NCBI GenBank assembly: GCA_001873565.1
Contig: MNZJ01000012.1
Location: 439 to 64,438, forward strand
Length of the DNA: 64,000 nucleotides
From: Candidatus Peregrinibacteria bacterium CG2_30_44_17
GTDB taxonomy: Bacteria; Patescibacteriota; Gracilibacteria; UBA1369; UBA12470
Direction: 5' to 3'
The notes below the pieces were generated by a model that did not search any database, was not told the origin of the DNA, and saw only the letters and a list, made by a program, of their open reading frames with translations. A program made the translations under genes and the position numbers. Shown one piece after another: positions 3,359-51,681 of this stretch (position 1 is its first letter; every line of letters begins with the position of its first letter).

Positions 3359-3439
3359 TGCAAACTCACCCCTCAGCTACAGGGAGAACAGCCCCTTATC
3401 TGTCGGCGAATTTTTGATAACCGCTTGTCGGGGGCACCA
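3359..3439 (+). repeat. Copy C of the approximately 80-nt intergenic repeat family
   Basis: tgcaaactcacccctcag ... ccccttatctgtcggcgaatttttgataaccgcttgtcgggggcacca. Confidence 0.65.
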
Positions 3440-5676: not shown

Positions 5677-5750
5677 ATGTAAGCATTTAAAAAGTAAAAC
5701 CTGCTTCAATCAAAGCAGAAATGATGTGCGGGGGGAAGAGCGAGTGCCTG

Positions 5751-6261: not shown

Positions 6262-6294
6262 CCCCTACCCACTATCTCGCGCGAAGCGCTCCAT

Positions 6295-6380
6295 CCCTAA
6301 ATCCTAAATCCTAAATCCTGCCATAAATAAACATTCCATTCACTAATCCCTAAATCCTAAGTCCTAAATCCTAAAAAAAC
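6295..6380 (+). repeat. Two blocks of tandem CCTAAAT heptamers (G-poor leader) immediately upstream of the lexA ATG
   Basis: ccctaaatcctaaatcctaaatcct at 6295-6319, and tccctaaatcctaagtcctaaatcctaaaaaaac at 6347-6380. Confidence 0.85.
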
Positions 6381-7551: not shown

Positions 7552-10173
7552 ATGTCCAAGAAACTGACGCCAATGATGGAGCAATATAATGAGATCAAAG
7601 CATCTCATAATGATGCCATACTGTTTTTTAGACTTGGGGATTTTTATGAAATGTTTGGAGCTGATGCAAAAGAGGCCTCGGTCATTCTTGGCATAACGCT
7701 GACGGCGAGAAACAAAGGCGAGCACAGAACACCAATGTGCGGGATACCTTATCACGCAGCAGAAAACTACGTCGCCAAACTGACAAAAGCCGGCAAAAAA
7801 GTAGCGATATGCGAACAAGTGAGCGATCCGAGTTTGCCTGGAATCGTGAAGAGGGAAGTCATCAAAATAATAACGCCCGGAACGACATTCAATGATAGTA
7901 TCCTTGATAAAAAAACCAACAATTTCGTTGCCAGTATTTTCCCTAAAGAGAACTATTTCGGTCTTGCGCTAGCTGACCTTACAACAGGAGAGTTCAAAGT
8001 AACGGAGATTAGCGGATACGGCGATCTCAAGGCGGAACTCACAAGAGTGCGGCCGTCAGAATGTGTAATCAGGCAGGATCTACTCGAGAGAGTCGACTTC
8101 AAAGAGTTCTTAGACTCCTTTGAAGATATGTATGTATTCAAGTTCGAAGACTGGAACGACCCGTACAAAACCTTGCTCGAGCATTTCAGCGTACGCAGTA
8201 TGGATGGATATGGAGTCGAAAGATGGCCTTTTGGAATGCGTGCGGCGGGGATACTGCTAAGTTATTTGAAATCGACTCAGAAGACAGACCTTAGGCATAT
8301 AACAAAAATTTCATCATACAGTACGGAGGAGACGATGCTGCTTGACGAAGCGACAATACAGAATCTCGAGATCATAGCCACTCTAAGGGAAGGGAAAAAA
8401 GACGGATCACTACTCGGCGTAATAGACGACACAATAACCTCAATGGGAGGAAGATTGCTTAAGAAATGGCTGCTTCGTCCACTGCTCAGCAAAGACGAAA
8501 TACAGAAACGTCTCGACAGCGTGGAAGAACTGGTCAAAAAACAGACAATCAAGCGCTCGCTGGAGGGTAGCCTTAAGCAAATTCTTGATTTGGAGAGATT
8601 AGTCGCCAGACTTAGTTGCGAAAGTGGGAACGCCAGAGATCTGATCGCTATCAAAACTTCACTTCAGGTCATCCCTGAGATCAAAAGGGCTCTCAAAGAC
8701 GCGAACTCAAAACTGCTCGTAAGCGCGAGGCAGAATTTGAAAGAGATAAAAAAACTTGTAGACTTAATAGAAACGGCGATACTCGATGAACCGAAAGTCA
8801 CACTCAAAGACGGAGGACTTATTAAAACAGGATTTTTCCGCGAACTCGATGAGCTCAGAAGCATAAGCAGCGAAGGAAAAAGCTTCATAACGGATTTGCA
8901 AAACAAAGAAATAAAACGAACGGGGATATCATCGCTCAAAGTGAGATACAATAGAGTGTTCGGATATTACATTGAGATCAGTAAGACGAATCTGAGTCTT
9001 GTGCCAAGCGACTACATCCGCAAGCAGACACTTGTTAACGCGGAGAGATTCATCACTCCGGAACTCAAGGAGTACGAAGAGAAAGTCTTAACCGCAGAAG
9101 ATAGAATTGTAGAACTCGAGCATAAGCTTTTTCTTGAGATAAAAAGTCAGGTCTTGGAGCATTTGGAAGGGATACAGAGCAACTCACTCATTATTGCGGA
9201 GCTCGATGTTTTGCACTCATTTGCGCAAACAGCGCTAAAGAATCGCTATACAAAACCTCTCATCAACAATAAGCAAAGGCTGGTAATCAAAAACGGACGA
9301 CATCCGGTTGTCGAACAGATGACATTCGGCAGAACATTCATACCCAACAGCACAGATTTGGATAACGAAACAAATCAATTCGTACTGCTTACAGGTCCGA
9401 ACATGAGCGGAAAATCGACCTACCTAAGACAGGTTGCGCTGATCACGCTGCTGGCACACATCGGTTCATACGTTCCCGCAGGGGAGGCTGATATATGCCT
9501 GACAGATAGGATCTTCACGAGAGTGGGAGCATCGGACAATCTGACAAAAGGGCAAAGCACTTTTATGGTGGAAATGCAGGAGACCGCAAACATAATCAAT
9601 AACGCGACACACAGAAGTCTTATCATCCTTGACGAGATAGGTCGTGGTACAAGCACATACGATGGCATGAGTCTTGCATGGTCCATTTGTGAATATGTCC
9701 ACGACAAAATCAAAGCAAAGACACTGTTCGCGACTCACTATCATGAGCTGATTGCGGTGGTTGATAGGCTGGAAAAAGGATCAAATTTCCACGTCACAGC
9801 GAAAGAAGACGCTCAAAAAGGGATAATTTTTCTCTACAAAGTTCTCGAAGGCGGAATAAGCAAAAGTTATGGGATAGAAGTTGGCAAACTCGCCGGCTTA
9901 CCTGTAGAAATCACAGAAAAAGCGATTCAGATTCTCGAAGAACTGGAAGAAGGAGTGTTGGAAAAGAGCATCAAAGAGAGACTCAAGACAGGCAAAACCC
10001 GCGTACCGGAATCGCAAATGGCCCTATTCGACAAAGCAACAAGCACTTACGCCGCTTCCCGCGAACCGGGCAAGCTAACGCATCCAGCCCTTGAAGCTTT
10101 GAAGAAGCTTGATATAAATACTATGACGCCGCTCGAAGCATTGAAAAAACTAAACGAGCTGAAAGACTTATAG
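7552..10173 (+). CDS. mutS: DNA mismatch repair protein MutS
   Basis: MMEQY...FFRLGDFYEMF N-terminus, Walker A GPNMSGKST, and ILDEIGRGTSTYDG...ATHYHEL. Confidence 0.95.
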   Translation: MSKKLTPMMEQYNEIKASHNDAILFFRLGDFYEMFGADAKEASVILGITLTARNKGEHRTPMCGIPYHAAENYVAKLTKAGKKVAICEQVSDPSLPGIVKREVIKIITPGTTFNDSILDKKTNNFVASIFPKENYFGLALADLTTGEFKVTEISGYGDLKAELTRVRPSECVIRQDLLERVDFKEFLDSFEDMYVFKFEDWNDPYKTLLEHFSVRSMDGYGVERWPFGMRAAGILLSYLKSTQKTDLRHITKISSYSTEETMLLDEATIQNLEIIATLREGKKDGSLLGVIDDTITSMGGRLLKKWLLRPLLSKDEIQKRLDSVEELVKKQTIKRSLEGSLKQILDLERLVARLSCESGNARDLIAIKTSLQVIPEIKRALKDANSKLLVSARQNLKEIKKLVDLIETAILDEPKVTLKDGGLIKTGFFRELDELRSISSEGKSFITDLQNKEIKRTGISSLKVRYNRVFGYYIEISKTNLSLVPSDYIRKQTLVNAERFITPELKEYEEKVLTAEDRIVELEHKLFLEIKSQVLEHLEGIQSNSLIIAELDVLHSFAQTALKNRYTKPLINNKQRLVIKNGRHPVVEQMTFGRTFIPNSTDLDNETNQFVLLTGPNMSGKSTYLRQVALITLLAHIGSYVPAGEADICLTDRIFTRVGASDNLTKGQSTFMVEMQETANIINNATHRSLIILDEIGRGTSTYDGMSLAWSICEYVHDKIKAKTLFATHYHELIAVVDRLEKGSNFHVTAKEDAQKGIIFLYKVLEGGISKSYGIEVGKLAGLPVEITEKAIQILEELEEGVLEKSIKERLKTGKTRVPESQMALFDKATSTYAASREPGKLTHPALEALKKLDINTMTPLEALKKLNELKDL

Positions 10174-10323
10174 AAACAAACGTTTCGCGCAGCGAAACTC
10201 CATCCCTACACCCTACACCCTATCCAAAATCAAAAACAAAAATTCCTGGAAGCACTCAACAGACGATACGTATCGGTTATTTTTGATATAGATGGAACGA
10301 TAACAGAGATTGGTGAGCAGGAC

Positions 10324-11097
10324 ATGCCTGTCGCTTTGGCCAAAAAGATGGCGGACTTGAGCCTGAAAATGCCGATAGCCTTCGGGACGGGGCGCATCAT
10401 GGAGCACCTCCAAGGTCATATTGAGCAAATCCTAAGATTCTCAAAAGATCCTGAGACAACAAAAAAGAACTGGTACATCATCGGAGAGAACGGCGGAGCA
10501 GGACATTGGTACAACCCTGATTCTAAGTCTTACGAGGAGTTTTATAGAGTCGATTGGGACAGCAGTTTGATCGATAGGCAAAAGCTCAAGGCTCTTATCT
10601 CGAAAGAGGCTAAGCAGCTAATAGAGTCAATCAGTATAAATCAAACGCAGTTTCTAATTAGACCGTACCGAGAGGGTGTGCCAATTGGGCAAGTCGCCAA
10701 AAACACCGCGAAAATCAAAGAGATCGCAGACACAATCATGAGATCTTACAAAGGGCATAATGAGTTTGAAGTCTTGGATTCCAGTATCGCAGTACATATA
10801 AACCCAAAAACCGCCAACAAAGACCTGGGGGTCCGCATGTATGCAAAGCTGCTTTCCGCGAAGCTGGGGATACAGTCAGGAGAATCTGCAAGAGATATCA
10901 TGGTTATTGGAGATCAAGCAGGGCCGGGCAGGAACGACTACGAGTTCTTAAAAGGAGACATCGGAACGCCATTCACAGTCGGAGATTTGGACCACGTGGC
11001 GGAGTGGCCATTACCTGTTTTTGATGGAGACAATGTTATAAAAGGTCCTGAAGGGACGCTATATCTTATAGAGAAGGCAAAATTCGGCTTGCGCTAA
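10324..11097 (+). CDS. HAD-superfamily (IIB-like) phosphatase; the true N-terminus very likely lies upstream of the first ATG
   Basis: Motif IV-like VIGDQAGPGRNDYEFL lies inside the ORF. The catalytic motif I (VIFDIDGT) is encoded in-frame at 10276-10299, upstream of the annotated ATG, with no ATG/GTG/TTG between the upstream stop (10171) and 10324. Confidence 0.7.
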   Translation: MPVALAKKMADLSLKMPIAFGTGRIMEHLQGHIEQILRFSKDPETTKKNWYIIGENGGAGHWYNPDSKSYEEFYRVDWDSSLIDRQKLKALISKEAKQLIESISINQTQFLIRPYREGVPIGQVAKNTAKIKEIADTIMRSYKGHNEFEVLDSSIAVHINPKTANKDLGVRMYAKLLSAKLGIQSGESARDIMVIGDQAGPGRNDYEFLKGDIGTPFTVGDLDHVAEWPLPVFDGDNVIKGPEGTLYLIEKAKFGLR

Positions 11098-23277: not shown

Positions 23278-26200
23278 CTACATCTCTTGCAGTTTCATCA
23301 CAAGAGTGATGATTTTTGCCATCTCGCCCAGAGCTATAGTACGTTCGGGACGCATATAGCCATCTCCATAACCAGATACGATGCCTTGCGCATAAGCATG
23401 AATCACGTAAGGCGCATACCAAGCATCGATGTCTACGTCGGGGAATGGGTTTGCTGGCAAATAGTAGTAATCCAAAAGAGCATCTCCATAGAGTGTCTCA
23501 ACATCATCATGCGTAATCAAAAAAACTATCTTAAGAGCTTCGGCTCTGTTGATAGTCCAGTTAGGATGGAAAGTGCCATCGGGATACCCCTGGATGATGC
23601 CGTTTTCATAAGCGGTGATTATGTACTCGGCGCCTTCGTCATATATCGTCATATCCAAAAAAGGCATGTAAGTCGCTTCGGAAACGACGTTTACGTCGAG
23701 CAGATCCATCGCCGCCTCGAGGAACTCAATGCGACTCATCTGCTCCTCCGGATCGAAGAGGTAGCTGATAACTTGAGACTCGATACTGTCGCCGGAAGCA
23801 GACTCGTTTATTTGATTAATAAGTGTGTTCTCATAAAAATCTTTCAAGTAAGGCTCGGCCCAGTGGCCGTTAAGCTGTGACACGACTTCCGTGTTCCATG
23901 TGGATTCAAAATCGTTAACAACTTCAGCGACATCGTCTGTCGGCGGCACTTCAATCTCGACCTCGACTTCAACCTCGGCGACTTGATCATTATTGGAAGA
24001 CGAACCGCCTCCGGTATATGTGTAGGTATTCCCGAAGCCGGCTCCTCCGCCGGTTGGACTGCTGCCGGAAGATGAGCTGGAGCTTATAATGAAGCTGCGA
24101 CCACCGGAATTAACGGAGTTGCCGTACGAGTCTAGCGCCATAACATAAACGGCATACATGGCGCCGGAAGTCAGCCCTGTCATCGGTGCCGTACTTGTAG
24201 CCATGCCGGAGACATCTCCATAAAGAGTGTAGCTGCCGGCCGTTGAGAGCTTGTAATAAATCTGATATTTGTCGAAATTGCTTTCGGTAGTCACAGGGAT
24301 CCAGACCAAATTGAGAGAAGTCGATCCGACGGAACTCGCGTATATGGTACTGGTAAATCCACCGGAAGGCGCGACTTGGTCCAGTACGAAAGCGTCGGAT
24401 GTAAGTATGCTGCCGACTTCGGTGCCATCATAAGGGGTAACACGGATTTGCGCATTTGATATATCGGCAGTGCCAAGATCGGAAGCAGCGTCCCATACGG
24501 CGGTGATTGTGTTGTTGCCGGAAGAGGTTGTAACGTACCCGGTGGCATTACCGATTTGGTAAGTATTGTCGTTTTCAACATCGGGAGTGCCATGAGTGGC
24601 GGCTATGTCGGAAACAGTCTCGGAAATTGTAGCCTTCACCCAAGAGCTGCCAACATTGTAATAAACGCTGAATTGTAAAGTGTCATCGTTGTCCGAGTCG
24701 CCGGCGATGAACGATAGATTAACCTTGCCGTTGCCATTGGTTGTCTGTGCCGCAGTGAGTGACGAAGCGGTGGGAAGGCCGTTATTATTAACGGAAACAG
24801 TAGTTGATTGAGCGGTATTGCCATAGCCGTCGATAGCCCAAATCCTCAGATAGTAAGTGGATCCTCCCATAAGTCCGGTAATTGTCGTAGTGGTAGTGCC
24901 GGCGGTACTCAAATTGCCATCATTGCTGTTGTCCCACTCGGATGCGGTTCCCGTGCGATTCTCAACATCGCTTTGATTGGTGCCGTACCAGATCTCATAA
25001 TGGTTGAAATTTGTGTCGCTTGCGGCATCCCAACTCAGAGCTATCGTAGTGGATGTGTTTGCTGTCGATTGGAAGCTGCCAAGACCCGTAGGCGCGCTAT
25101 TGTCTATGATGAATGTGGAAGAGGTTTGGGTTGTTCCCGTGCCAGTACCGTCATAAGGTGTGATGCGTATTTGGGCGCCGGAAGTGTCGGCGGTAGGTTC
25201 ATCGGTTTGAGAAGTCCATCCCGCACTAATCGTATTAGCGCCGGAAGAGGTTGTGATATATCCTGCCACATTACCTATTTGGTGCACATTGTCGTTCTCA
25301 ACATCGGGTGTACCGTAAGTGGCGGTCGTATCAGCGAGACTCTCGGAGATGGTTGCCTTGTTCCATCCGGCTCCGATATTGTATTCGACCAAGGCTTGCA
25401 ACGTGTCATCATCGTCATCGTCATCGATGGTAAATTGAACAGTCACTTCGCCGGTGCCATCGGTTGCGGAAGAACCGCTCACGGAGCTTGCGACAGGCTC
25501 GGTATTGAACGACCAATTCAAATTGTTCCCAGCGTCAACGGATCTTGCGGAATCGACGGCGTGAACGATCGCGCTTCCGCTACTTGCGTCGGAGTCTTTT
25601 ACGTTTACATAATCTACGGAAGACGAGCCGGAGACGTTCAAGGACCACTGATTGCCATCGGAATCACTGCGGAGAGTAATAAGATCTCCGGTGCCACCGG
25701 TTAGGGTTAAAGCTCCGGCAACGGTTTGAGTCCCGGTGTTGGAGAACACCAGTGGTTTACCCGCCTGCGTACAAGACAGATTATAAAAAGTCGTAGATCC
25801 TGCAATATTGCCCGTGGCGGTGGTTGTAAAGTTGACGCTGCCACTGTTGTGAGAAAAAGTACCGCCTGTGCTGTCGAAGCTGCCACCCAGATTGATAGTA
25901 GGTGGAGCTGTCATAGTACCGCCGGATACTGTGAGGCTACCATTTACGGCAAGTGTTGTAATGTCAACAACGACCTCATCCGTCGTATCTCCCCCTGCGA
26001 GTATGGCAATTTGATCAGAGGTCAAAGGGGCGTCATACACCCTGACGTCATCGATGAGACCGTCAAAAGCCTCTGCGTATCCAGGACTCTTGCCGATAGC
26101 GACGTTATTGGCGGAAGTATCGTAAGCTATCGTAGCGGTTGTGGCGGCAGAACCGTTGAGATAAAATGTAGTACCTACTCCGGGCTCGTAAACCACGGCT

Positions 26201-28656
26201 ACATGCTGCCAAGTCCCGGCAGTAACGGTCTTCCCTGTAGTCCAAAATCCTGCACCCGTAGGTATTATCCAATTGGAACCACTACGATAAATACCCCAGT
26301 CGAAGCCGCCGTTGTCAGTACCGATGACAGCATGATTCCCACCCGACGTTGTCTCCGGCTTAACCCAGGCGGAAAACGTAACGCCTGTTGTTCCGGAAGA
26401 TTGGTCGATGTTCAAACTCGTATTGATGATGTCGGTTCCGCCATCAAAATCCCAGCTTTGAGTGTCGGCGAAATTCAACGTTGGGACGTCAGCATTCGGA
26501 CCTTCCGGGGCGATAATATTGGAAGGGGTCCCGGTGTAAGCACCTGCGCTGTCGGCAATAGAGCCGGCGCCACCGATCGAGGATTCATCGAGTTTCCAAT
26601 ACGCAATCAGGTTGTCGTTTAGTGTTCCGGGAATGGTTCCGGAATACGTCACTATATCATTAGCATCGACAGGGTCGATAACCAGATTGTAATAAGACAT
26701 GTCTTTGAGAATCCATGTGTCGGCAAGTCCGTCACTGTCGCCAACATAAGTGAAAGTGCCGGAATTACTGTCGAATCCCCCCGTACCGCTGAAATTCAAG
26801 GTTTCATCGCCTTGGATTTGGAAGTTGCCGTCATTGCTAAATACACCATTAACCGTAAAGTTGTAGCTGTTGGTGAAAAATGTGCCGGCGGTAATAGTCA
26901 CATTGCCTGAGATGCTTTTGGTAGTACCAATCTGGAATATTCCACCAGGACCATTGATTGTAAGGTTGTCGTAATTCCAATTCTCTATAGTGGTCGTCCC
27001 TGATGTCTTGGTGTAAACGACAGTGCTGCCGGCAGCTAGCTGAGGGTAGCCGCCATTGGTCGTGATGGTCTGACCTCCTTGTAATTGCAAAGTCGTTCCA
27101 CTGTTTATAACAAAAGTTCCACCGGATCCGTTCACAGTCAGATCGTATCCTGCCAAATCCAAAGTGCCTGAGGTAAGAGTCAAATCTTGGCTGGCAGCAT
27201 CCATAACCAAAGCACTGCCAAGGGTGAAAGTGCCGGAAGTTTTATTTATCGTGATGTCGGTATTAATAATCCCCGTATTGCCGAATGTGGCGACCTGATC
27301 GTTTGTGCCGGTGAAATTGTAGGTGACAAGTGAGTCGTCGAATCCGGCAAGCATGGTGAAGTCCCCTTGAACAGTAACGTTGTTGCTATTGTTTATTTTG
27401 CCGTTGTTCAGAGAAAGCGTACCTTGCACGGTAATAGGCTCACTATTTAGATATAGCCAATTAGTATCAAGACCAAGTTCAACCGTAAGATTGTTAAAGA
27501 CGGTACTGTTGGGATTGATCGTGACATCTCCAGTGCGATCAACCTTTACGGTTCCGCTGCTGTGGTTAAAAGTACCGCTGGTGTGATTGAAGTTTTGTGC
27601 TAACTCCAGAGTGCCGCTTGTAGAATTGAAGACGGCGGAAGCGCCGTTGATGGTCAGGATGGCATCGAAATTGAGAGTACTGTCACCGCCGTTGAAAGTC
27701 CCGCCGGTCTGGTTGAACGTGCCGGATGTAAAAGCGAAAGTCGTCGCAGGGCTTACAGTATAAGTCCCGGAAGTTAATGTAAAATTGGCATTTTGAGTGA
27801 GGTTGCCGTTTTGAGTGACGGTACCGGAAGCTTTGTTAATGGTGATCGGGTGGTCGAAATTGCCTGTAAAACTGTTATTAAAAGCCTGATCGGCTGTGCC
27901 GGAGAATAAGATGGTGGTGGTGCCGATGTCGTAATCCGCGCTCACATTAACGGCAGGACCTGTCATTGTTAATGTATTACTCATCATATTGCCGTTATTC
28001 AAGTTCAGAACATTGGTAACGGTCAAAGCGTTGCTATTGTTTATAAAGAAGTTATTGGCGCCGTTAACAAGTTCCACAGTCAAGTTGTACAGGGTGGTCC
28101 CGCTTGCATTCGGATTAATCACAACGTCTCCACTTGTGCGATCAATTTTGACGGTTCCGCTGCTGTGGTTGAAAGTGCCACTGGTGTGATTAAAGCTGCC
28201 GCCACCAAGCTGCAGAGTACCGCTGGTGGAATTGAAGACGGCTGAAGCGCCGTTAAGAGTCAAATTGCCATTGATATCTATGGTGCCGCTACCTCCGGAA
28301 AATGTGCCGACATCTTGCAGGAATCCATTACCGCCAACAGTGATGGTGTAAGTGGAAGTTTGAGTTATCGTACTCGTGTATCCGGTATTGATGTCAAAAC
28401 CGGCGACATTGACATCGGCATCTATGTTGCAAGGAGTGTCACTGGTGGCGTCGAATGTTGCGATATCGTCTGAATCGGGTACTACACCAAGGCTCCAGTT
28501 ATTGGGGTTGTTCCAGCTATTGTCGGCATCGCTGTTGTCCCATGTGTTGATGGCTACTGCGGAGACGGACCGGATGCACAGAAAAACGCCGATAACGACA
28601 ATCGGAAGCAGTTTTATAAGTATACGAATTCTTGGGAGTATGAATAATGAGTGCAT
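23278..28656 (-). CDS. Giant cell-surface protein: signal anchor, beta-helix-like repeats, LamG/ConA-like domain, two (novel module + FN3) units, Ser-rich and EV-repeat linker, C-terminal SLH domains
   Basis: About 1790 aa from ATG 28656 (MHSLFILPRIRILIKLLPIVVIGVFLCIRSVSA). Repeated GTFNHSSGTVK[IV]DRT units. LamG-like ...FDGLIDDVRVYDAPLTSDQI. FN3-like ...IALSWDAASDTNFNHYEIWYG...STYYLRIWAIDGYGN. SLH-like YPDGTFHPNWTINRAEALKIV and FPDVDIDAWYAPYVIHAYAQGIVSGYGDGYMRPERTIALGEMAKII. Confidence 0.85.
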   Translation of the reverse strand: MHSLFILPRIRILIKLLPIVVIGVFLCIRSVSAVAINTWDNSDADNSWNNPNNWSLGVVPDSDDIATFDATSDTPCNIDADVNVAGFDINTGYTSTITQTSTYTITVGGNGFLQDVGTFSGGSGTIDINGNLTLNGASAVFNSTSGTLQLGGGSFNHTSGTFNHSSGTVKIDRTSGDVVINPNASGTTLYNLTVELVNGANNFFINNSNALTVTNVLNLNNGNMMSNTLTMTGPAVNVSADYDIGTTTILFSGTADQAFNNSFTGNFDHPITINKASGTVTQNGNLTQNANFTLTSGTYTVSPATTFAFTSGTFNQTGGTFNGGDSTLNFDAILTINGASAVFNSTSGTLELAQNFNHTSGTFNHSSGTVKVDRTGDVTINPNSTVFNNLTVELGLDTNWLYLNSEPITVQGTLSLNNGKINNSNNVTVQGDFTMLAGFDDSLVTYNFTGTNDQVATFGNTGIINTDITINKTSGTFTLGSALVMDAASQDLTLTSGTLDLAGYDLTVNGSGGTFVINSGTTLQLQGGQTITTNGGYPQLAAGSTVVYTKTSGTTTIENWNYDNLTINGPGGIFQIGTTKSISGNVTITAGTFFTNSYNFTVNGVFSNDGNFQIQGDETLNFSGTGGFDSNSGTFTYVGDSDGLADTWILKDMSYYNLVIDPVDANDIVTYSGTIPGTLNDNLIAYWKLDESSIGGAGSIADSAGAYTGTPSNIIAPEGPNADVPTLNFADTQSWDFDGGTDIINTSLNIDQSSGTTGVTFSAWVKPETTSGGNHAVIGTDNGGFDWGIYRSGSNWIIPTGAGFWTTGKTVTAGTWQHVAVVYEPGVGTTFYLNGSAATTATIAYDTSANNVAIGKSPGYAEAFDGLIDDVRVYDAPLTSDQIAILAGGDTTDEVVVDITTLAVNGSLTVSGGTMTAPPTINLGGSFDSTGGTFSHNSGSVNFTTTATGNIAGSTTFYNLSCTQAGKPLVFSNTGTQTVAGALTLTGGTGDLITLRSDSDGNQWSLNVSGSSSVDYVNVKDSDASSGSAIVHAVDSARSVDAGNNLNWSFNTEPVASSVSGSSATDGTGEVTVQFTIDDDDDDDTLQALVEYNIGAGWNKATISESLADTTATYGTPDVENDNVHQIGNVAGYITTSSGANTISAGWTSQTDEPTADTSGAQIRITPYDGTGTGTTQTSSTFIIDNSAPTGLGSFQSTANTSTTIALSWDAASDTNFNHYEIWYGTNQSDVENRTGTASEWDNSNDGNLSTAGTTTTTITGLMGGSTYYLRIWAIDGYGNTAQSTTVSVNNNGLPTASSLTAAQTTNGNGKVNLSFIAGDSDNDDTLQFSVYYNVGSSWVKATISETVSDIAATHGTPDVENDNTYQIGNATGYVTTSSGNNTITAVWDAASDLGTADISNAQIRVTPYDGTEVGSILTSDAFVLDQVAPSGGFTSTIYASSVGSTSLNLVWIPVTTESNFDKYQIYYKLSTAGSYTLYGDVSGMATSTAPMTGLTSGAMYAVYVMALDSYGNSVNSGGRSFIISSSSSSGSSPTGGGAGFGNTYTYTGGGSSSNNDQVAEVEVEVEIEVPPTDDVAEVVNDFESTWNTEVVSQLNGHWAEPYLKDFYENTLINQINESASGDSIESQVISYLFDPEEQMSRIEFLEAAMDLLDVNVVSEATYMPFLDMTIYDEGAEYIITAYENGIIQGYPDGTFHPNWTINRAEALKIVFLITHDDVETLYGDALLDYYYLPANPFPDVDIDAWYAPYVIHAYAQGIVSGYGDGYMRPERTIALGEMAKIITLVMKLQEM

Positions 28657-28819
28657 ATTTAGGGTACAATTTAGTAAAAAACACTCGCTAACAATATCAT
28701 TTATGCGGTATCGAAGCAAAAAAATATATGTATGGAAACGAGATCGACGGTAGTATGAACAGGCCATAGCGTGAACACGCCATAATTGACTTTCGCGGAG
28801 GTCTCGTTAATCTAATGAC

Positions 28820-29893
28820 ATGATGCTAAGAAAACTGGAACTTACGAACTTCCGAAACATTGAGAAACTCTCAATGTCTTTTGAGAAGGATAAAAAAGTC
28901 ACCGTCCTGATAGGAGAAAACGCACAGGGGAAGACAAACTTCCTTGAGAGTATATATTTCTTAGCAATAACAAGATCGTTTCGAACAAAACAGTTTACGG
29001 ACACAATAATGTGGGGTCGCGAGCACGGTCGTATAAAAGGGAGAATAGAAACTCAGGATGAGGAGTGCGAGCTGGAGGTAGCATTTACATCGCAGAAGAG
29101 GAGAAAATTAAAGAAGAAGAATGTCGAGGTGGAAAGCCGCAAGTATATACAGAGTCTCAATGTAGTTCTTTTTGTACCGGAAGATGTCCACATAGCGACT
29201 GGAGATCCTGAGACGCGACGCAGATACCTCAACTTAACATCAATCCAATCATTCCCTGGTTTTTTGGAGACATTGGTAACTTATACAAGGGCACTTAGAA
29301 GTCGCAATGAGCTCCTCAAAAAGCGAGCACCGATCTCGCATATAGAGATATGGGATGAGAAACTTGCAGAGCTGGGAGTTGATATATGGGACAAGCGCAC
29401 GCAGCTGCTCGAATTCTTTTCGCGTGGGATCAGCGATAAATACCGAGAGCTTTCCGGGTCAAATCAAGACCTGACTATAAAGTACAAAGCATCGCCAAAG
29501 ACAAAAGATGATTATTTGAAAGCACTGAAAGAGTCTTATGAGCAGGATGTCGCGAGACACACAACTCATTTTGGGCCACACAGAGACGATTTCAAGATAT
29601 ATATTGACGATGAGCCGATCAAAAAATACGGATCACGAGGAGAATGCAGAACTGCAGTACTTGCATTAAAACTTGTAGAGCTGGAATTCCTTACGAGTTT
29701 GACAGGTCAGAAGCCTTTGCTGCTACTTGACGACGTGCTTTCAGAACTGGATCACGGTAGGCAGAAACACTTGGTTGAGATAATTCTGGATCACCAAACA
29801 GTCCTGACGACAACATGCCGAGAACATCTCGGAGGGTTTACAGACGAAATCAAGGTTTTTCAGATGAAAGACGGAGAGATAGTTGGCGCATAA
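28820..29893 (+). CDS. recF: DNA replication and repair protein RecF
   Basis: LELTNFRNIEKLSMSF...VLIGENAQGKTNFLESIYFLA Walker A, then LLLDDVLSELD. Confidence 0.9.
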   Translation: MMLRKLELTNFRNIEKLSMSFEKDKKVTVLIGENAQGKTNFLESIYFLAITRSFRTKQFTDTIMWGREHGRIKGRIETQDEECELEVAFTSQKRRKLKKKNVEVESRKYIQSLNVVLFVPEDVHIATGDPETRRRYLNLTSIQSFPGFLETLVTYTRALRSRNELLKKRAPISHIEIWDEKLAELGVDIWDKRTQLLEFFSRGISDKYRELSGSNQDLTIKYKASPKTKDDYLKALKESYEQDVARHTTHFGPHRDDFKIYIDDEPIKKYGSRGECRTAVLALKLVELEFLTSLTGQKPLLLLDDVLSELDHGRQKHLVEIILDHQTVLTTTCREHLGGFTDEIKVFQMKDGEIVGA

Positions 29894-29938
29894 TATGAGG
29901 TCTCAATAGGTTCTGTTATTGCCAATACCACCGAAAAG

Positions 29939-29947
29939 TGGTATAAT
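29939..29947 (+). promoter_or_regulatory. Extended -10 element TGGTATAAT upstream of prsW
   Basis: The 9-mer is identical to that at 49-57. It is preceded by the small hairpin ccaccgaaaagtgg. Confidence 0.4.
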
Positions 29948-30089
29948 TCACAGATGTAGCTGACCCTGTAAACTGTCTTGCGCGAAGCGCTCCATCCATA
30001 CACCCTCATCCCTAAATACTCTGTTCGACACCCATCTCTCAAAAATCATAGTCAGTATTGTACTAGCCGCAGTACCTGCGATAGCATGG

Positions 30090-30902
30090 TTGTACATTTT
30101 CCTAAAAAAGAGAAAAGAGCTGCTTACTACGGTTATGTTGACGTTTGTAGCGGGGATGGTGTCGGTAGCTCCTATAATAATATACAAACTAAGTTGGAAA
30201 TATTTTCCGGAGTTTAATCTCTTCAATTACCTAGAGAGGTTCGACAGTAATCTGCTAGGATTTACAGATATCATGATTCTACCTGTCAGTGTAATATTGA
30301 GCTTCTTGCTTGTAGGTATGATAGAAGAGTACATGAAGCATTTGGCGGTGAAGACAGTCGATGACAATAGGTTCAAAGATATTGATGATGCGATTGAATA
30401 CAGTATCGTCGCGGCGCTAGGGTTCGCATTCATAGAGAATATTATGTATTTTTTCTACATCTGGCAGTATCAGGGGATAGACACGCTCTATATGTCCTTC
30501 ATATTCAGATCGATTTTTTCTACATTTGCGCACGTTCTGTTCTCGGGAATTTACGGCTATTATTATGGCATTGCCCATTTCGCGGAGCCTATTTTCCAAG
30601 AGGAAATACAAGAGAACAGGCATCCTTTTATCAAACTTGTGCACAGAATATTGAATCTAAGATCAGAATCACTCTTTAAGGATGAAAAAACAACGCAAGG
30701 TCTTATGTATGCGATTGTACTGCATGCTATTTTCAACGTGGTACTGGAGATGAACCTAACATTCCTAATAGTTCCATACTTAATTATCGGTTACGTAGCT
30801 CTGACATATCTGTTCTCAAGGAAGAAAAACCACATAAGATACGGAAAAGTTATAGGCAGAGCACAAAACACATTGGATTATGAGGAAAATAGACAAGCCT
30901 AG
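30090..30902 (+). CDS. prsW: PrsW-family intramembrane metalloprotease; the N-terminal TM helix is encoded upstream of the first canonical start
   Basis: EEYMKHLAV, ALGFAFIENIMY, HVLFSGIYGYYYG and HAIFN motifs. The track start at 30090 is a TTG inside the first TM helix, and the in-frame upstream sequence encodes KIIVSIVLAAVPAIAW. Confidence 0.8.
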   Translation: MYIFLKKRKELLTTVMLTFVAGMVSVAPIIIYKLSWKYFPEFNLFNYLERFDSNLLGFTDIMILPVSVILSFLLVGMIEEYMKHLAVKTVDDNRFKDIDDAIEYSIVAALGFAFIENIMYFFYIWQYQGIDTLYMSFIFRSIFSTFAHVLFSGIYGYYYGIAHFAEPIFQEEIQENRHPFIKLVHRILNLRSESLFKDEKTTQGLMYAIVLHAIFNVVLEMNLTFLIVPYLIIGYVALTYLFSRKKNHIRYGKVIGRAQNTLDYEENRQA

Positions 30903-31080
30903 CAGCAGAAATTTGAACCCTGCGAAGGATGACAACGATTACGCTACGGTCCTCACTCAAGGTTCACCGACCGTTAAGCTGACGAAAACAGCGATCTTGG
31001 CTGGACAGAGATCAAATGTGCCGGTTGGAGACACAATGCAAGGTGCCTTAAGTGGAGTAATAGCTGTTGGGCGACCTATA

Positions 31081-31230
31081 GAGCCAAATTGAAATAAAAT
31101 GACATAAAGAGCAATGGCGATTTTGTCATAGGGCGAGGCGTCAAAAACGAGGAATAGCAGCGCTATTTAAGGCTTTTGACAACAAAGCCATATGGCAAAA
31201 GTACCATCTTCTGCTTATGTCATTTTATTT
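31081..31230. mobile_element. About 150-bp palindromic MITE-like element (family A) with roughly 30-bp terminal inverted repeats
   Basis: The left arm is gagccaaattgaaataaaatgacataaagagc. The reverse complement of the right arm is agccaagtcaaaataaaatgacataagcag. A half copy lies at 51421-51490. Confidence 0.55.
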
Positions 31231-32047
31231 TGACTTGGCTTTATCATTTAGTGATAGTACAAGGTCCACAAGTGATATAATACAAGTTAAGGTAACAAGA
31301 TCAGGCATTGTAAGACTGCAGACAAGTACATCGGTCTACGAGCTGAGAATAGAAGATAAACGCGCTGGCAGAGTGAGATCTCTGCAGTATTTAAGGAGGG
31401 GATATCTGGATTATGACGAAACAATGCCGGACGGATTTTATGACGGAGGGCACGGAATGGAATTCGAAATAGACGAAAATGATGCACTAAAGGTACGGTC
31501 GCCACGCGAGGTTATTCTTGTTGACGGCACCAAGGATCAAGGATTGGCGTTCAAACTAGATGCTGCCAGGAAATTCATAGAAAACACGACTGCAGTTGAA
31601 GACAAAATCAAAATGCTGGCGATGTTTGTCAGTAATTCACTTGGCGGTTCTCAAATGGTGCAAGGAAGTGGGCTCAGTATTACGGACATGACGGATCGTG
31701 AAATAGAGTTGCGAAAACAGAACGTGCCGACAGCAGGAGAAGTAGTGATGTTGGGGTATTTAAACTACGGAGTGTGTCGACACAGAGCATTGGCTTTTAA
31801 ATATTTCGCAGATCGACTCGGAATAAGATCCAGGCTCGTACGAGGCAAGCAAGGAGGAGCAGATGGTGGATGGCATATCTGGAATGTCGTAGAGCTCGGA
31901 GGTAAACACTATGTAGTAGATGTTATGCAGCAGCCTTGGAGGTTGATGGAACAAGACAGCAAGGAAGTAGGAGCATATCAAAGAGCATTTAACGAGAGAG
32001 GCGCCAGAGTCCTAGCCGGCATTGGCGGCAGAAGCATTACCAGATAG
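31217..32047 (+). CDS. EDR1/CTR1-N-terminal-like (transglutaminase/papain-fold) domain protein
   Basis: YLDYDETMPDGFYDGG ... GVCRHRALAFKYFADRLGIRSRLVRGKQGG...HIWNVVELGGKHYVVDVMQQP matches my recollection of the plant EDR1/CTR1 N-terminal domain motif (DGFYD ... CRHRALLFKVLAD..G.PCRLVKG ... YLVDLM). The ATG lies inside the family A repeat arm. Confidence 0.6.
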   Translation: MSFYFDLALSFSDSTRSTSDIIQVKVTRSGIVRLQTSTSVYELRIEDKRAGRVRSLQYLRRGYLDYDETMPDGFYDGGHGMEFEIDENDALKVRSPREVILVDGTKDQGLAFKLDAARKFIENTTAVEDKIKMLAMFVSNSLGGSQMVQGSGLSITDMTDREIELRKQNVPTAGEVVMLGYLNYGVCRHRALAFKYFADRLGIRSRLVRGKQGGADGGWHIWNVVELGGKHYVVDVMQQPWRLMEQDSKEVGAYQRAFNERGARVLAGIGGRSITR

Positions 32048-36993: not shown

Positions 36994-38126
36994 ATTCAAC
37001 CTGTTGGAACCTGTAGAATGGGGTTAGTCATTAACCCCAAAAACTATGTCCACACAAAACAGTTTTCTTGCCATCGCTCACAAGAAGAAGCTTCGATGTG
37101 AGAAATTTCTTGATGATATGAGTAGCGTTATTCCTTGGGATAGTTTTCTAGCTCAGATCGAACCTCATTATGAAGAGAAAGAACGTGGAAGAAGCAAGAT
37201 GGACATGAAGATGATGCTACAAATTTACTTCTTGCAACAATGGTTCAACCTGAGTGATCCTGGGGTGGAAGATATGATTTACGACAGAGCATCATTCCAG
37301 AAATTTCTAGGTATTGATTTGTTAGCAGATAGAGTCCCTGACGAAACCACAATCCTCAATTTTCGACATTTACTTGAAGAACATCAGCTACAAGTTAGAT
37401 TCTTTGATATTGTGAATGAGTTACTTGAAGAAAGAGGTCTTATCAAGAAAGATGGAACCATTGTAGATGCAACTATTATTAATGCCCCTTCAAGTACCAA
37501 GAATCAAAAGAAAGAGCGAGACCCAGAAATGAGCAGTACAAAGAAGGGAGGTAATTATTATTTTGGCATGAAGGGGCATATTGGAGTAGATGCGCAAGGA
37601 GGCCTTGTCCATAGTCTTGAAACAAGTACCGCTTCCGTACATGACAAGGACAAAATGGGAGATTTATTACATGGGGAAGAAAACGCTTTATTTGGAGACA
37701 AAGGCTATATTGGTAGAGAGGAAAAAATAGCGGCAAGAGTAGCAGAAGTTTACTGGGGCGTGCTGGACAAGGCTGCAAGGAATAGACCTCTTTCTTCCAG
37801 CCAGAAGAAACGAAACAACAAGATGTCGAAAATAAGGTCTAAAGTGGAGCATCCATTTCAGGTAATCAAATGCCAGTGGAAATACACAAAGGTTAGATAC
37901 AAAGGATTATTCAAAAACAGCATGCAACTTCACACCTTGTTTGCTTTGTGTAATTTGTTCAAGGCTAGGAAGAAACTCATGGCTCTGTCATAGGGATAAC
38001 TGTACCCAAACGGCAAGAAAACGAAGAAAAAGCACCAAAAAATAGGTGCTTACAACAGAGAAAATTATAAAATTGCCCAAATTTACTTACGCTACCGCAT
38101 GAGGTGCTTTTTTCAGAGAGTCCTTA
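36966..38126 (+). mobile_element. IS5-family insertion sequence (about 1161 bp) with 20-bp perfect terminal inverted repeats
   Basis: IRL is taaggactctctgaaaaaag at 36966-36985. The reverse complement of 38107-38126 is identical. It encloses a single InsH-like transposase gene. Confidence 0.85.
37046..37993 (+). CDS. IS5-family DDE transposase (InsH-like)
   Basis: Collinear with E. coli IS5 InsH: IPWDSFLAQIEPHY..., QQWFNLSDPGVEDMIYD, VPDETTILNFRHLLEEHQL, GTIVDATIINAPSSTKNQKKERDPEM, FGMKGHIGVDA, GDKGY, VEHPFQVIKCQWKYTKVRYKGL. Confidence 0.92.
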   Translation: MSTQNSFLAIAHKKKLRCEKFLDDMSSVIPWDSFLAQIEPHYEEKERGRSKMDMKMMLQIYFLQQWFNLSDPGVEDMIYDRASFQKFLGIDLLADRVPDETTILNFRHLLEEHQLQVRFFDIVNELLEERGLIKKDGTIVDATIINAPSSTKNQKKERDPEMSSTKKGGNYYFGMKGHIGVDAQGGLVHSLETSTASVHDKDKMGDLLHGEENALFGDKGYIGREEKIAARVAEVYWGVLDKAARNRPLSSSQKKRNNKMSKIRSKVEHPFQVIKCQWKYTKVRYKGLFKNSMQLHTLFALCNLFKARKKLMALS

Positions 38127-40833: not shown

Positions 40834-40839
40834 TAGAGT

Positions 40840-40936
40840 CCTCTGCGAGAGATCACTAACTACTGCAAAATGGGAAATCGGCTGCAAATCGCTCGATTTT
40901 TTCATCTTTCGAGAGCGTTACTGACTTTCGCAGAGG
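40840..40936. repeat. About 97-bp long imperfect palindrome (family B), followed by a U-tract, between the transaminase and the ABC-F gene
   Basis: The arms are cctctgcgagagatcactaac and gttactgactttcgcagagg. The core aactactgcaaaatg..aatc.gctgcaaat is shared with 51518-51681. It is followed by ccccagtttttt. Confidence 0.6.
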
Positions 40937-48455: not shown

Positions 48456-49463
48456 TTACCAAGGCTTCAATACTCCACTTGAGAAGTCCATATTGCTGTC
48501 CGTGATAACACCGATGTTCTCTGAATATTTCTTAAGTCGCGACAACATATCCGCCGCGCCTTCTTCGTCCATCAAGTATGGATCTCCCCTGTAAGGTTCG
48601 GCTAATTTAATCGGAATAAGCTGATATGTCGGGTTAGACGGATCCGTGAAGCTCAGATATATTCCAAGGCCTTCTTGCGTTCCGGCCGACCAGTATTGAT
48701 CGAATACAAAATTGCCGAGCGAATAGAAAATCATTCCGTCGCCGTAGTTTTCGATGGACTGTATAACATGGGGATGAGTTCCCCAAACCATATCGGCTCC
48801 TGCGTCTACGAAATCATGCGCATGCTGCTGAATAGAACTTGATGGCGTGTTTACATATTCCGTACCCCAATGAATCGCTACTATCGTAAAATCGGTTTGT
48901 TCCGCTATTTCTTTGGTCAGATTTACCGCCGCTTCATAATCCAATGCGGCTTCAACCTCATTGAATCCAAGCCATCCTACTACCTGCCCGTTTATTTCCT
49001 GAATGTATGATGAGAACTCGTTCACCTCGCGCGGGTTGCCAACGTAGCTTAATCCTGCAGCCGCCGTATACGTTCGCGTCTGCTCGTATCCTGTCTCGCC
49101 CTGGTTAAGCATATGATTGTTTGCAAGGCTAACGAATGAGACTCCCTGCGCAGCGAGCAATTCCGCCGTCTCGGGCATAAACCTGAAACACAGTTCGCAA
49201 TAAGACACTTGGTAATCTGTTACAGGACCTTCCAAGTTTACCGCCACAATGTCCGGTTCGCTTGAGTATGTGCTTATTATTTCCGGCAAATTCGTAAATG
49301 GGAAAGTCGGTTCGGTTTCTGCATATCTTGAACGCAAAGTTGCAATGTATCGTCCCAACATTACGTCTCCAAAAAACAGCATTTCTACAGGTTCTTGCGG
49401 TTTAAGTGGCTCTATTGTCCGTATATATGCGATCCTGCCGGCGTGATAGAGTTTGTTCTGCAT
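48456..49463 (-). CDS. capA: CapA/PgsA-family metallophosphoesterase-like protein; a signal-anchor helix is encoded upstream of the first canonical start
   Basis: FFGDVMLGRY, NLEGPVT, SLANNHMLNQG, HWGTEY, GADMVWGTHPHVIQ, YSLGNFVFDQ. In-frame codons 49553-49470 encode KQTAILTKIITTILLIVSNVTGYLIEDN with no ATG/GTG/TTG. Confidence 0.8.
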   Translation of the reverse strand: MQNKLYHAGRIAYIRTIEPLKPQEPVEMLFFGDVMLGRYIATLRSRYAETEPTFPFTNLPEIISTYSSEPDIVAVNLEGPVTDYQVSYCELCFRFMPETAELLAAQGVSFVSLANNHMLNQGETGYEQTRTYTAAAGLSYVGNPREVNEFSSYIQEINGQVVGWLGFNEVEAALDYEAAVNLTKEIAEQTDFTIVAIHWGTEYVNTPSSSIQQHAHDFVDAGADMVWGTHPHVIQSIENYGDGMIFYSLGNFVFDQYWSAGTQEGLGIYLSFTDPSNPTYQLIPIKLAEPYRGDPYLMDEEGAADMLSRLKKYSENIGVITDSNMDFSSGVLKPW

Positions 49464-49564
49464 GAACAAGTTGTCCTCGATTAAGTATCCGGTGACATTA
49501 CTGACTATGAGCAGAATTGTTGTGATGATTTTGGTTAAGATCGCTGTTTGTTTTTAGAGAGTCC

Positions 49565-50041: not shown

Positions 50042-51421
50042 ATGCAACTTCAAAAAGGTCAAACAATAACTACAGAAATTACGAAACTTGCTTTTGGTGG
50101 ACGAGGTATCGGGCAACTTGACGATGGCAGAAAAGTCTTTGTTGAAGGGGCAATACCCGGAGATAAAATCGAATGTACTCTTACAAAAATCAAGAAGAAC
50201 TATGCCGAGGCTGACCTTGTACGGATTGTTGCGCCTGCGAAAAATCGAATCGATGCCAAATGTAAGCATTTTGACCGCTGCGGAGGATGTAAATGGCAGA
50301 TGCTAGAGTATAAAGATCAGCTTAAATACAAAGAAGATCAAGTCCGCGAAGCTCTGGCGCATACCGGAGGCCTTGCCGACAGTGCCGATCTTGTTAAGCC
50401 GATCATCGGCTGTGACTACCCTTGGCTTTATCGTAATAAAATGGAGTTTTCTTTCGGTAATGAGTCGAAAGACGACGCTGAAGTAAGAGTCGGACTGCAC
50501 CCTGCCGGTCGCAGAGTCGATGTCTTTGATGTCGAGGAGTGCTTTATCGGATCTGAGATTGCCGCAGAGATTTTGTTAAGAGTCCGTACTTTTGTTCGCG
50601 ATCACAAATTGTCTTTTTATAATCACAAGACAGATACTGGACTTCTTTCTTCTCTTTTTATCCGTGAAGGTAAGAATACCGGTGAAATTATGATAAATCT
50701 TGTCACTTGCAGCTCGGAGTTCAAACACAAAAAAGAGTTCGTTGAACTTTTTCAAGACCTTCCGGAAGTCACCTCTATTTATTGGACGGCAATCAAGAGA
50801 AAACGCGGCGTACCGACTCAACATTACGAGAATTTGCTTTATGGAAAACCTACTATGGAGGAAGAGCTCAAACGTCCTGATGGCACAAGTCTGAAATTCA
50901 AGATTTCACCTCAATCTTTTTTTCAGCCAAATACAAAACAAGCCGAAGTCTTGTATGCGGAAGTTCTAAAAGCCGCCGAACTCACCGGAGAGCAGAATGT
51001 CTTTGACCTATATTGCGGAACAGGCACAATCGGACTCTTTTGTTCAAATAATGCGAAGATGGTTTATGGTATCGAGCTGAATGAATCCGCTGTCAAAAAT
51101 GCCAAGCAGAACATGATACTCAATGGCATCGAGAATGCATGGTTTAAGGCAGGCAACGTTGATGCCAAGCTATATGACATCCCCGCAGTGCCAGATGTTG
51201 TAATTGTCGATCCTCCAAGATCCGGATTAGGAGAAAAAGTCGTAGAAAAAGTTTGCGGATTTGATCCTAAAAAAATCGTATACGTCTCATGCGACCCTGT
51301 TAATCTCGCGCGCGATATTAAGTTCTTTGCGGAGAGAGGTTACAAATTATCTTATGTGCAGCCGGTGGATATGTTTCCGCATACTTATCACATTGAGAAC
51401 GTTGCGCTTTTGGTCAGGTAG
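50042..51421 (+). CDS. rlmD: 23S rRNA (uracil-5)-methyltransferase RlmD/RumA family (TRAM + Fe-S Cys cluster + SAM MTase)
   Basis: TRAM-like GGRGIGQLDDGRKVFVEGAIPGD, then CKHFDRCGGCKWQ, DLYCGTGTIGL, VDPPRSG. The ATG at 50042 is preferred over the track's TTG at 49988. Confidence 0.88.
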   Translation: MQLQKGQTITTEITKLAFGGRGIGQLDDGRKVFVEGAIPGDKIECTLTKIKKNYAEADLVRIVAPAKNRIDAKCKHFDRCGGCKWQMLEYKDQLKYKEDQVREALAHTGGLADSADLVKPIIGCDYPWLYRNKMEFSFGNESKDDAEVRVGLHPAGRRVDVFDVEECFIGSEIAAEILLRVRTFVRDHKLSFYNHKTDTGLLSSLFIREGKNTGEIMINLVTCSSEFKHKKEFVELFQDLPEVTSIYWTAIKRKRGVPTQHYENLLYGKPTMEEELKRPDGTSLKFKISPQSFFQPNTKQAEVLYAEVLKAAELTGEQNVFDLYCGTGTIGLFCSNNAKMVYGIELNESAVKNAKQNMILNGIENAWFKAGNVDAKLYDIPAVPDVVIVDPPRSGLGEKVVEKVCGFDPKKIVYVSCDPVNLARDIKFFAERGYKLSYVQPVDMFPHTYHIENVALLVR

Positions 51422-51490
51422 AGCCAAGTCAAAATAAAATGACATAAAGAGCGATGGTGATTTTGACATATGGCTTGTCTTGTCAAATCC
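51421..51490. repeat. Half copy of the family A MITE-like element
   Basis: gagccaagtcaaaataaaatgacataaagagcgatggtgattttgacatatggc closely matches the arms at 31081-31230. Confidence 0.55.
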
Positions 51491-51517: not shown

Positions 51518-51681
51518 GAGACCTCTGCGAAAGCCAATTAACTACTGCAAAATGACCAATCTGGCTGCAAATTGCGAAAAGCTCATCACCGTATCTAATC
51601 TGATACGCCATCTTCGCTTTTTGCAATTTTCGCACAAATTTGTCATTTTTCGTTAACGTTACTGACTTTTGCAGAGGTCTC
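51518..51681. repeat. About 164-bp long imperfect palindrome (family B, longer variant)
   Basis: The arms are gagacctctgcgaaag and cttttgcagaggtctc. The core aactactgcaaaatgaccaatctggctgcaaattgc is shared with 40840-40936. Confidence 0.6.

Follow-up and report, generated by a model that had tools for sequence, protein, structure and literature searches.

The DNA analysed in the current study (the window) is a 64,000-nucleotide (nt) stretch of the genome of Candidatus Peregrinibacteria bacterium CG2_30_44_17 (GenBank assembly GCA_001873565.1, contig MNZJ01000012.1, positions 439 to 64,438). It carries a gene for a predicted membrane protease of the PrsW family, here called prsW, whose conserved N-terminus is encoded ahead of every ATG, GTG or TTG codon in its reading frame. 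The prsW frame, in which codons begin at positions divisible by 3, is interrupted by a TGA at 29961–29963 and is then open for 312 codons to its stop. Direct reading of the sequence found no ATG, GTG or TTG in this frame between 29964 and 30089. The near-cognate codons there are CTG (29973 and 30021), ATC (29994 and 30045), ATA (30048 and 30081) and ATT (30057), exactly as given in the original prediction, which had been made from the sequence alone. According to the list of open reading frames (ORFs), TTG 30090 is the earliest canonical start, followed by ATG 30135. Upstream of 30090 the codons spell ...LFDTHLSKIIVSIVLAAVPAIAW, with LYIFLKKRKE following on, which places TTG 30090 within a hydrophobic helix; direct reading bore out the earlier statement to that effect.

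In B. subtilis, PrsW is the site-1 protease of the anti-sigma factor RsiW, and the family is listed as M82 in MEROPS. The product of the window gene matched Pfam family PF13367 (PrsW-protease) with 87.4 bits against a cut-off of 23.5 (E 1.2e-24), and contains the sequences IEEYMKH, STFAH and LHAIFN. These correspond to the EExxK/R, FxxxH-type and HxxxN/D motifs of CPBP/PrsW-type proteases, the catalytic role of which is established. In an alignment of 60 homologues, residues E102, E103, K106, H171 and H235 were invariant, and N239 was conserved in at least 90%. The protein therefore resembles the B. subtilis PrsW family in its PF13367 membership, its conserved motifs, its multi-pass helical build and an N-terminal helix that precedes the Pfam domain. 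The NCBIfam equivalog model for B. subtilis PrsW (NF033739) was matched only over residues 87–189, with 58 bits where the cut-off is 225, and the window protein is about 75 aa longer than the 210 positions of that model. A Foldseek search of the PDB with the predicted structure returned nothing significant, the best hit having an E value of 0.47, with weak matches to Rce1 and APH-1. Judged by these matches, the product is a member of the family and not a demonstrated functional equivalent of B. subtilis PrsW.

The homologues are 276–305 aa in length, and all of them have the N-terminal helix. Residues A16, P19 and W23, counted from CTG 30021, were invariant among the 60 homologues, and all three are encoded before TTG 30090. 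In an AlphaFold2 model built on the same alignment (mean predicted local distance difference test score, pLDDT, 85.9; predicted template modelling score 0.84), residues 4–30 formed a helix (pLDDT by block 84, 96 and 87) that was as confident as the catalytic core. Non-synonymous divergence (dN) of the N-terminal segment from more distant orthologues was 0.14–0.16, no higher than that of the remaining gene. The residues upstream of the canonical starts had been proposed to be homologous to PrsW orthologues, and the alignment showed that they are.

The starts of the orthologues point to one codon. Of the three closest orthologues, P0002 (82% identical) begins MFDTHFSK, P0003 MFDTHLAK and P0004 MDSHLVK (the last taken from the DNA), and the window reads LFDTHLSK from CTG 30021. 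The start of P0005 also aligned there, so that P0002, P0003 and P0005 show MFDTH or MFTTH where the window has LFDTH. At the DNA level, the ATG of the corresponding loci (L003 for P0002, L008 for P0003 and L005 for P0004) aligns on CTG 30021. P0004, deposited as a 268-aa protein beginning MVPAIAW, was considered as a second orthologue lacking a canonical start; this was rejected as a choice of the gene caller, an ATG being present 15 codons upstream (L005:2956). In a wider survey with one genome per species, all 79 relatives returned had a canonical start 1–22 codons before helix 1 (72 ATG, 5 TTG and 2 GTG), and none began at the position equivalent to 30090. The nearest species-level relatives carry the label Candidatus Peribacteria. 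The exception found in the window lineage amounts to a single A-to-C change in the prsW start codon.

The same CTG is present in two other assemblies of the window population (L001 and L002, 99.93% identical over 3 kb) and in a sister lineage (L095, sample SRR22387796), whose prsW DNA is 95.4% identical to that of the window. From codon 24 to the end of the gene, the two lineages differ with a synonymous divergence (dS) of 0.155 and a dN of 0.011, and no signs of a pseudogene (frameshifts, internal stops or relaxed constraint) were seen in prsW. The 66 nt that follow the CTG show no difference between the window and L095, where about nine would be expected under neutrality at the synonymous rate of the gene, and the 33 nt preceding it match at 17 positions. 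This contrast indicates that constraint begins at the CTG and predates the split of the lineages. The upstream frame is accordingly intact in close relatives, and its loss, which would have spoken against the original prediction, was not seen. Of two metagenome scans for ATG or CTG variants of this start region, one gave no hits and the other a single 21-nt chance match on an unrelated contig (L015).

The sequence context of the CTG was compared with that of 39 ORFs in the window with unambiguous ATG starts. These 39 genes have no Shine-Dalgarno motif; G makes up 10.7% of positions −25 to −1, compared with a background of 22%, and several of the leaders consist of CCTAAAT- or CCCTACA-like units. 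CTG 30021 likewise has no GGAGG-like motif 5–10 nt upstream, and its preceding 25 nt contain no G at all. A position weight matrix over −20 to −1 gave a leave-one-out mean of 2.3 (sd 3.4) for the true starts and a mean of −4.1 (sd 3.7) for all window positions. With this score CTG 30021 reached 5.5 (99.6th percentile of all window positions) and ATA 30048 reached 2.7 (96.8th percentile), followed by ATC 30045 (−2.4), ATG 30135 (−6.0) and TTG 30090 (−10.6).

A sigma-70-type promoter lies upstream of this leader and matched the consensus at 11 of 12 positions plus the TG of an extended −10 element. The arrangement TTGCCA...TGGTATAAT is also present in relatives L003 and L004, and TGGTATAAT or ATGGTATAAT is found in L005 and L008; the −10 element originally proposed at 29939–29947 thus stood up as a consensus match that is kept in relatives. 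From the position of the promoter, transcription is expected to start near 29952–29954. A leaderless prsW mRNA is not what the sequence predicts: the single strong predicted promoter ends at 29947, about 74 nt before CTG 30021. Folding of the leader gave one stable element, the small hairpin at 29980–29990, and left the start region unpaired. About 40 nt of the leader are missing from L003. A known RNA family was also considered for the leader and rejected, as Rfam gave no match at 29880–30140 even at E values up to 1, a tRNA-Thr being the sole match above threshold in the entire window. An ATG-TAG 'start-stop' pair at 29954–29959 coincides with the expected transcription start; it is out of frame with prsW, absent from L003 and L008, and probably due to chance.

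Features of prsW and of the two other genes with proposed near-cognate starts in the window
Feature	Position	Strand	Remarks
Sigma-70-type promoter	29919–29947	+	−35 TTGCCA 29919–29924, 17-nt spacer, extended −10 TGgTATAAT 29939–29947
5' leader of prsW, about 67 nt	29954–30020	+	hairpin GCGC-GAA-GCGC 29980–29990, then CTCCATCC, then G-free tract
CTG, most likely prsW initiation codon	30021–30023	+	position of orthologue ATG, CTG in L095, conservation boundary, leader score
Codons 2–23, FDTHLSKIIVSIVLAAVPAIAW	30024–30089	+	short N-terminus and most of transmembrane helix 1, before every canonical start
ATC 30045 and ATA 30048, alternative near-cognate starts	30045–30050	+	less likely; 8 codons inside conserved block
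Remainder of prsW	30090–30902	+	from TTG 30090 inside helix 1 to stop TAG 30900–30902
HAD-IIB-like phosphatase gene	10222–11097	+	start most likely ATC 10222–10224; DIDGT 10285–10299; first ATG 10324
CapA / PGA_cap-family gene	48456–49541	−	start most likely ATC 49541–49539

The leader contains a module that is common to the upstream regions of lexA (6271–6319), prsW (29972–30020) and the HAD-type phosphatase gene (10182–10220), in which a short GC hairpin is followed by CTCCATCC and then by repeats of the CCTAAAT/CCCTACA type. The lexA and prsW copies are 49 nt each and 82% identical (repeat family D6). In the phosphatase leader the stem is retained and the loop altered (GCA to ATA) in the sister lineage L096, and in relative L009 the stem differs in sequence and CCATCC comes after it. 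The module might serve to stabilise the 5' end, as a hairpin at the end of an operon or as a landing pad for ribosomes.

The original prediction had also named two other places, 10174–10323 and 49470–49553, where the same pattern recurs, and at both of them it proved to be real. At the first, the ORF listed from ATG 10324, which encodes a HAD-type phosphatase, has ...IQNQKQKFLEALNRRYVSVIFDIDGTITEIGEQD in frame ahead of it, and no canonical start is found back to the mutS stop at 10171–10173. The FDIDGT sequence in this segment (HAD motif I) aligned in the family profile with FDVDGTLT, residues 11–18 of human phosphomannomutase 2, and TIGR01484 matched the protein from profile position 2. A protein begun at 10324 would lack the catalytic DxDGT, as the motif is encoded upstream of this first ATG. 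The orthologous locus L010 reads ATG CAA AAT AGA AAA CAA AAA TTC, which corresponds codon for codon to ATC CAA AAT CAA AAA CAA AAA TTC in the window; the orthologue starts are TTG in L009 and ATG in L011. In the sister lineage L096 the ATC is kept, a 3-nt in-frame insertion follows shortly after it, and ATA replaces ATG 10324. The best leader score at this gene (7.6) belongs to CTG 10246. The alignment with the L010 ATG and the in-frame indel in L096, which lies between the ATC and CTG 10246, make ATC 10222 the most likely start over this alternative.

At the second place, a gene on the complementary strand encodes a CapA-like protein (Pfam PF09587, 6.3e-52), the membrane-anchor helix of which, KIITTILLIVSNVTGYLI, is encoded upstream of TTG 49469. 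CapA orthologues begin MLLKILITIL, and the window reads ILTKIITTILL from ATC 49541. At this position L013 carries ATG, and the codon of the sister lineage L012 is ATT. Over the 23 codons from ATC/ATT to TTG 49469, the window and L012 differ by three synonymous changes and one conservative non-synonymous change (dN/dS 0.09), although dS over the whole gene is 0.59 and the upstream 40 nt are unalignable. With about 52 non-synonymous sites in the segment, approximately 20 non-synonymous changes would be expected if it were neutral. Among the comparisons made, this segment gives the strongest single evidence that sequence is translated in this clade with no canonical start preceding it.

Three kinds of evidence were found at each of the three sites: homologous coding sequence upstream of the canonical starts, a near-cognate codon at the start position of orthologues, and purifying selection behind it, the last of these being represented at the phosphatase gene by the in-frame 3-nt indel. 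All three near-cognate starts are common to the window lineage and its sister, and the next relative (GCA_964344725.1) has ATG, TTG and ATG at the corresponding positions. In addition, each of the near-cognate codons is directly preceded by the same G-poor type of leader as the ATG genes.

Taken as a whole, these comparisons suggest that prsW remains a live gene and is translated from CUG 30021, where a near-cognate codon has taken the place of an ancestral AUG; we give this a probability of about 0.7. Initiation at a codon other than ATG, GTG or TTG appears to be the best reading for prsW. The mRNA would be made from the TTGCCA/TGgTATAAT promoter, and ribosomes would load on the unstructured, G-free tract of its leader by a route that does not involve a Shine-Dalgarno sequence. 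The initiator tRNA would then pair with CUG (with AUC at the other two genes) in spite of one mismatch, presumably at low efficiency, and the first residue would be formylmethionine. The predicted product, about 293 aa long, is a PrsW-family protease of full length with transmembrane helix 1 in place, and AUC would be the same solution in the two other window genes. Re-initiation by terminating ribosomes could contribute at the phosphatase and capA genes, since each lies close behind another gene (at 48 nt from the mutS stop codon and 23 nt from that of rlmH, respectively), whereas prsW has its own promoter. For a membrane protease, a phosphatase and a membrane-anchored CapA-like protein a low output would be fitting, whether it is selected or merely tolerated.

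The original prediction had placed the prsW start at ATC 30045 or ATA 30048, which would give a protein about eight residues shorter that retains most of helix 1. Both are in-frame near-cognate codons, ATA 30048 has a fair leader score, three distant orthologues (P0074, P0095 and P0099) have a start that precedes the K-L-L of helix 1 by just one residue, and the other two sites probably start with codons of the AUC/AUA/AUU type. The closest orthologues, however, begin eight codons before ATC 30045, exactly on CTG 30021; the FDTHLSK codons between the two are identical in L095, with the conservation boundary at the CTG; ATC 30045 scores below zero; and a helix 1 begun at 30045 or 30048 would be shorter than that of any aligned orthologue. 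A start at either codon therefore seems unlikely for prsW, and the proposal of initiation at AUC or AUA, which found less support there than CTG 30021, holds better at ATC 10222 and ATC 49541. The choice between CTG 30021 and ATC 30045 rests on the orthologue alignment, the conservation boundary and a weak leader score.

It is also conceivable that an ATG-to-CTG change destroyed the start, leaving a decaying gene or a truncated protein made from TTG 30090 or ATG 30135. Gene callers do choose ATG 30135 or ATG 30156 (P0001 and P0289–P0292), all 79 other species retain a canonical start whose loss could be a defect, and near-cognate codons are inefficient in E. coli. Decay is difficult to reconcile with two lineages that keep the CTG at a dS of 0.155, with 66 nt unchanged, no stop or frameshift, and strong constraint on the remaining gene. 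A truncated product would lack the invariant A16, P19 and W23, and the contexts of TTG 30090 and ATG 30135 are G-rich and unlike any real start in the window. There are moreover two parallel genes, and a start at the first ATG would deprive one of them, the phosphatase, of its catalytic aspartates. Loss of function or truncation is thus improbable. As CTG differs from ATG by one base, an assembly artefact might hide an ATG; alternatively, the frame could be entered by recoding, either by read-through of TGA 29961 from the in-frame TTG 29919 upstream of it or by a frameshift from an upstream ORF. A sequencing error is contradicted by L001, L002 and the diverged L095, and CTG is shared by the window and four independent assemblies that come from three samples. 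TTG 29919 forms part of the conserved promoter's −35 element, ahead of where transcription is expected to start, and the residues encoded at 29964–30020 have no counterpart in any orthologue, so that we regard these explanations as extremely improbable. An alternative genetic code with UGA as a sense codon was rejected as well: long ORFs across the window agree with the standard code 11, and no homology was seen for the residues before 30021.

Several points weigh against initiation at CUG 30021. The support for prsW is wholly comparative, and the first residue, the transcription start and the level of expression are deduced from sequence. Among the 80 compared, only the window lineage and its sister have no canonical prsW start, and the loss of this start is therefore young on the scale of the family. 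The 21 nt at 30024–30044, taken alone, show no differences (P about 0.05 if neutral) and only weakly separate CTG 30021 from ATC 30045. The leader matrix is a weak discriminator, with 12 of the 39 true starts scoring below zero in the leave-one-out test. By the standards of E. coli, near-cognate initiation would yield very little protein. Finally, a single window and a gene set of our own choosing underlie the figure of three near-cognate starts in about 47 genes.

Near-cognate starts are known in E. coli, where infC, encoding initiation factor 3 (IF3), and pcnB start with AUU, and translation table 11 lists such codons. As in infC and pcnB, the proposed start codons of the window are one mismatch from AUG and presumably read by the initiator tRNA, and weak initiation is expected. 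The AUU of infC serves autoregulation through IF3, whereas a membrane protease, a phosphatase and a CapA-like protein offer no apparent logic of this kind. In E. coli, CUG, AUC, AUA and AUU initiate at 0.02–3% of the level of AUG, and for AUC the N-terminal methionine has been detected by mass spectrometry (Hecht et al., bioRxiv 10.1101/063800). According to the same study, ATG, GTG and TTG account for 99.95% of the annotated starts in model genomes (bioRxiv 10.1101/063800). The window, with near-cognate starts in about 3 of 47 genes, differs clearly from the roughly 0.05% annotated in those genomes. The E. coli near-cognate mRNAs carry a Shine-Dalgarno sequence, unlike the leaders in the window.

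The absence of this sequence has parallels elsewhere. A Peregrinibacteria genome (Ca. Peribacter riflensis) is counted among the organisms in which Shine-Dalgarno sequences are scarce (PMC10783764), and ribosomal protein bS21 is often missing in Peregrinibacteria (PMC9297842). As in such organisms (Bacteroidota and others, among them Ca. Peribacter riflensis), the leaders of the window are G-poor and unstructured up to the start, with no GGAGG. Neither PMC10783764 nor PMC9297842 mentions near-cognate starts in such organisms, whereas in the window leaders of this kind stand before CTG and ATC. A search of one literature collection for papers linking Patescibacteria to near-cognate starts found none. 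Since near-cognate initiation is already known, the window genes are a new set of members and not a new kind. What is unusual is their density in one stretch of a genome, and their setting in an uncultivated lineage with a reduced ribosome and no Shine-Dalgarno sequences.

Start-codon usage across the window raises a broader possibility. No gene in the window needs GTG or TTG, and the tally stands at about 44 ATG, 1 CTG and 2 ATC. The ORFs called from TTG at 5709, 49988 and 51640 were considered as further cases and rejected, as each has, a few codons downstream, an ATG whose leader context is similar or better (leader scores 1.4, −0.7 and 4.0); for ORF 49988, the orthologue length of 459 aa agrees with ATG 50042. 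It is possible, although we hold it to be doubtful, that start-codon discrimination is relaxed throughout the lineage, such that CUG, AUC and AUU are used regularly in several per cent of genes and GUG and UUG hardly at all. The cause might then be an alteration of the reduced initiation apparatus, in IF3, in the anticodon stem of the initiator tRNA (tRNAfMet) or in the P-site of the 16S rRNA; relaxed discrimination through any of these would account for a lineage with several near-cognate starts. A G30-C40 swap within tRNAfMet's anticodon stem lowers discrimination against CUG in vitro (PMC11497404), and IF3 normally bars non-canonical starts (PMC9723500). No initiator tRNA was found in the window or in the 60 retrieved loci that were scanned, and infC and 16S rRNA were likewise absent from the window and from all retrieved loci.

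Two lineages have kept these three near-cognate starts under purifying selection, and a share of about 3 in 47 genes far exceeds the annotated level of about 0.05% in model bacteria. Should this rate apply genome-wide, the lineage would offer a natural case for how the stringency of start-codon selection is set, whether by IF3, the initiator tRNA stem or the 16S P-site. If lineage-wide relaxation were true, the feature would be present across the genome and systematically overlooked by gene callers, with the three genes as its visible part.

Public records of these proteins are truncated because gene callers accept ATG, GTG and TTG alone. The deposited PrsW proteins P0001 and P0289 are 255 aa long and start from ATG 30135, and others are 248 aa. 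The truncated records include OIP81458.1, PIS03748.1 and PJB88486.1 for PrsW, OIP81447.1 and others for the phosphatase, and OIP81476.1 and others for the CapA-like protein. What they miss is the PrsW helix with its invariant residues, the DxDGT motif of the phosphatase and the CapA membrane anchor. Identical proteins are found on 41–49 contigs of metagenome-assembled genomes labelled Candidatus Peregrinibacteria bacterium, and predictions of function, topology and structure made from the truncated records inherit the error.

The gene just downstream of prsW carries an insertion of about 160 nt (31078–31244) that resembles a miniature inverted-repeat transposable element (MITE), with 30-nt terminal inverted repeats (87% complementary) and TA on both flanks. 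In the sister lineage (L095:893–1897) the site is empty, and an intact ORF of 334 aa (PF14381, EDR1/CTR1/ARMC3 peptidase-like) begins inside the 3' end of prsW. The window counterpart of this gene (30880–32047) is split into a 70-aa ORF (30880–31092) and a 276-aa ORF. The MITE-like element appears to supply the new start codon of the latter, as ATG 31217 lies within the 3' inverted repeat of the element. A second copy of its 5' end (88% identical) was found at 51419–51474, adjoined by a different inverted-repeat element at 51518–51681 (19-nt arms, 89%), which has a relative at 40836–40936. Both kinds of element resemble dispersed families of small intergenic sequences.

Upstream of prsW, the ORF at 23278–28767 on the complementary strand encodes a surface protein of 1829 aa (SLH, Laminin_G_3 and fn3 domains according to the annotation of relatives). 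The length of this gene varies among assemblies of the same population, and L001 lacks about 526 nt of its internal-repeat region (window positions 27590–28115). A DDE transposase gene (PF01609, 1.9e-28) lies at 37046–37993. Near the beginning of the window, two overlapping small ORFs (3541–3780 and 3780–4052) were picked out by eye as a candidate toxin-antitoxin pair. A 41-nt repeat (CCCTTATC...GATAACCGCTTGTCG.GG) occurs three times (1209–1249, 2947–2987 and 3393–3433), in copies that are 71–100% identical and surround a ribonucleotide reductase gene at 1277–2806 on the complementary strand.

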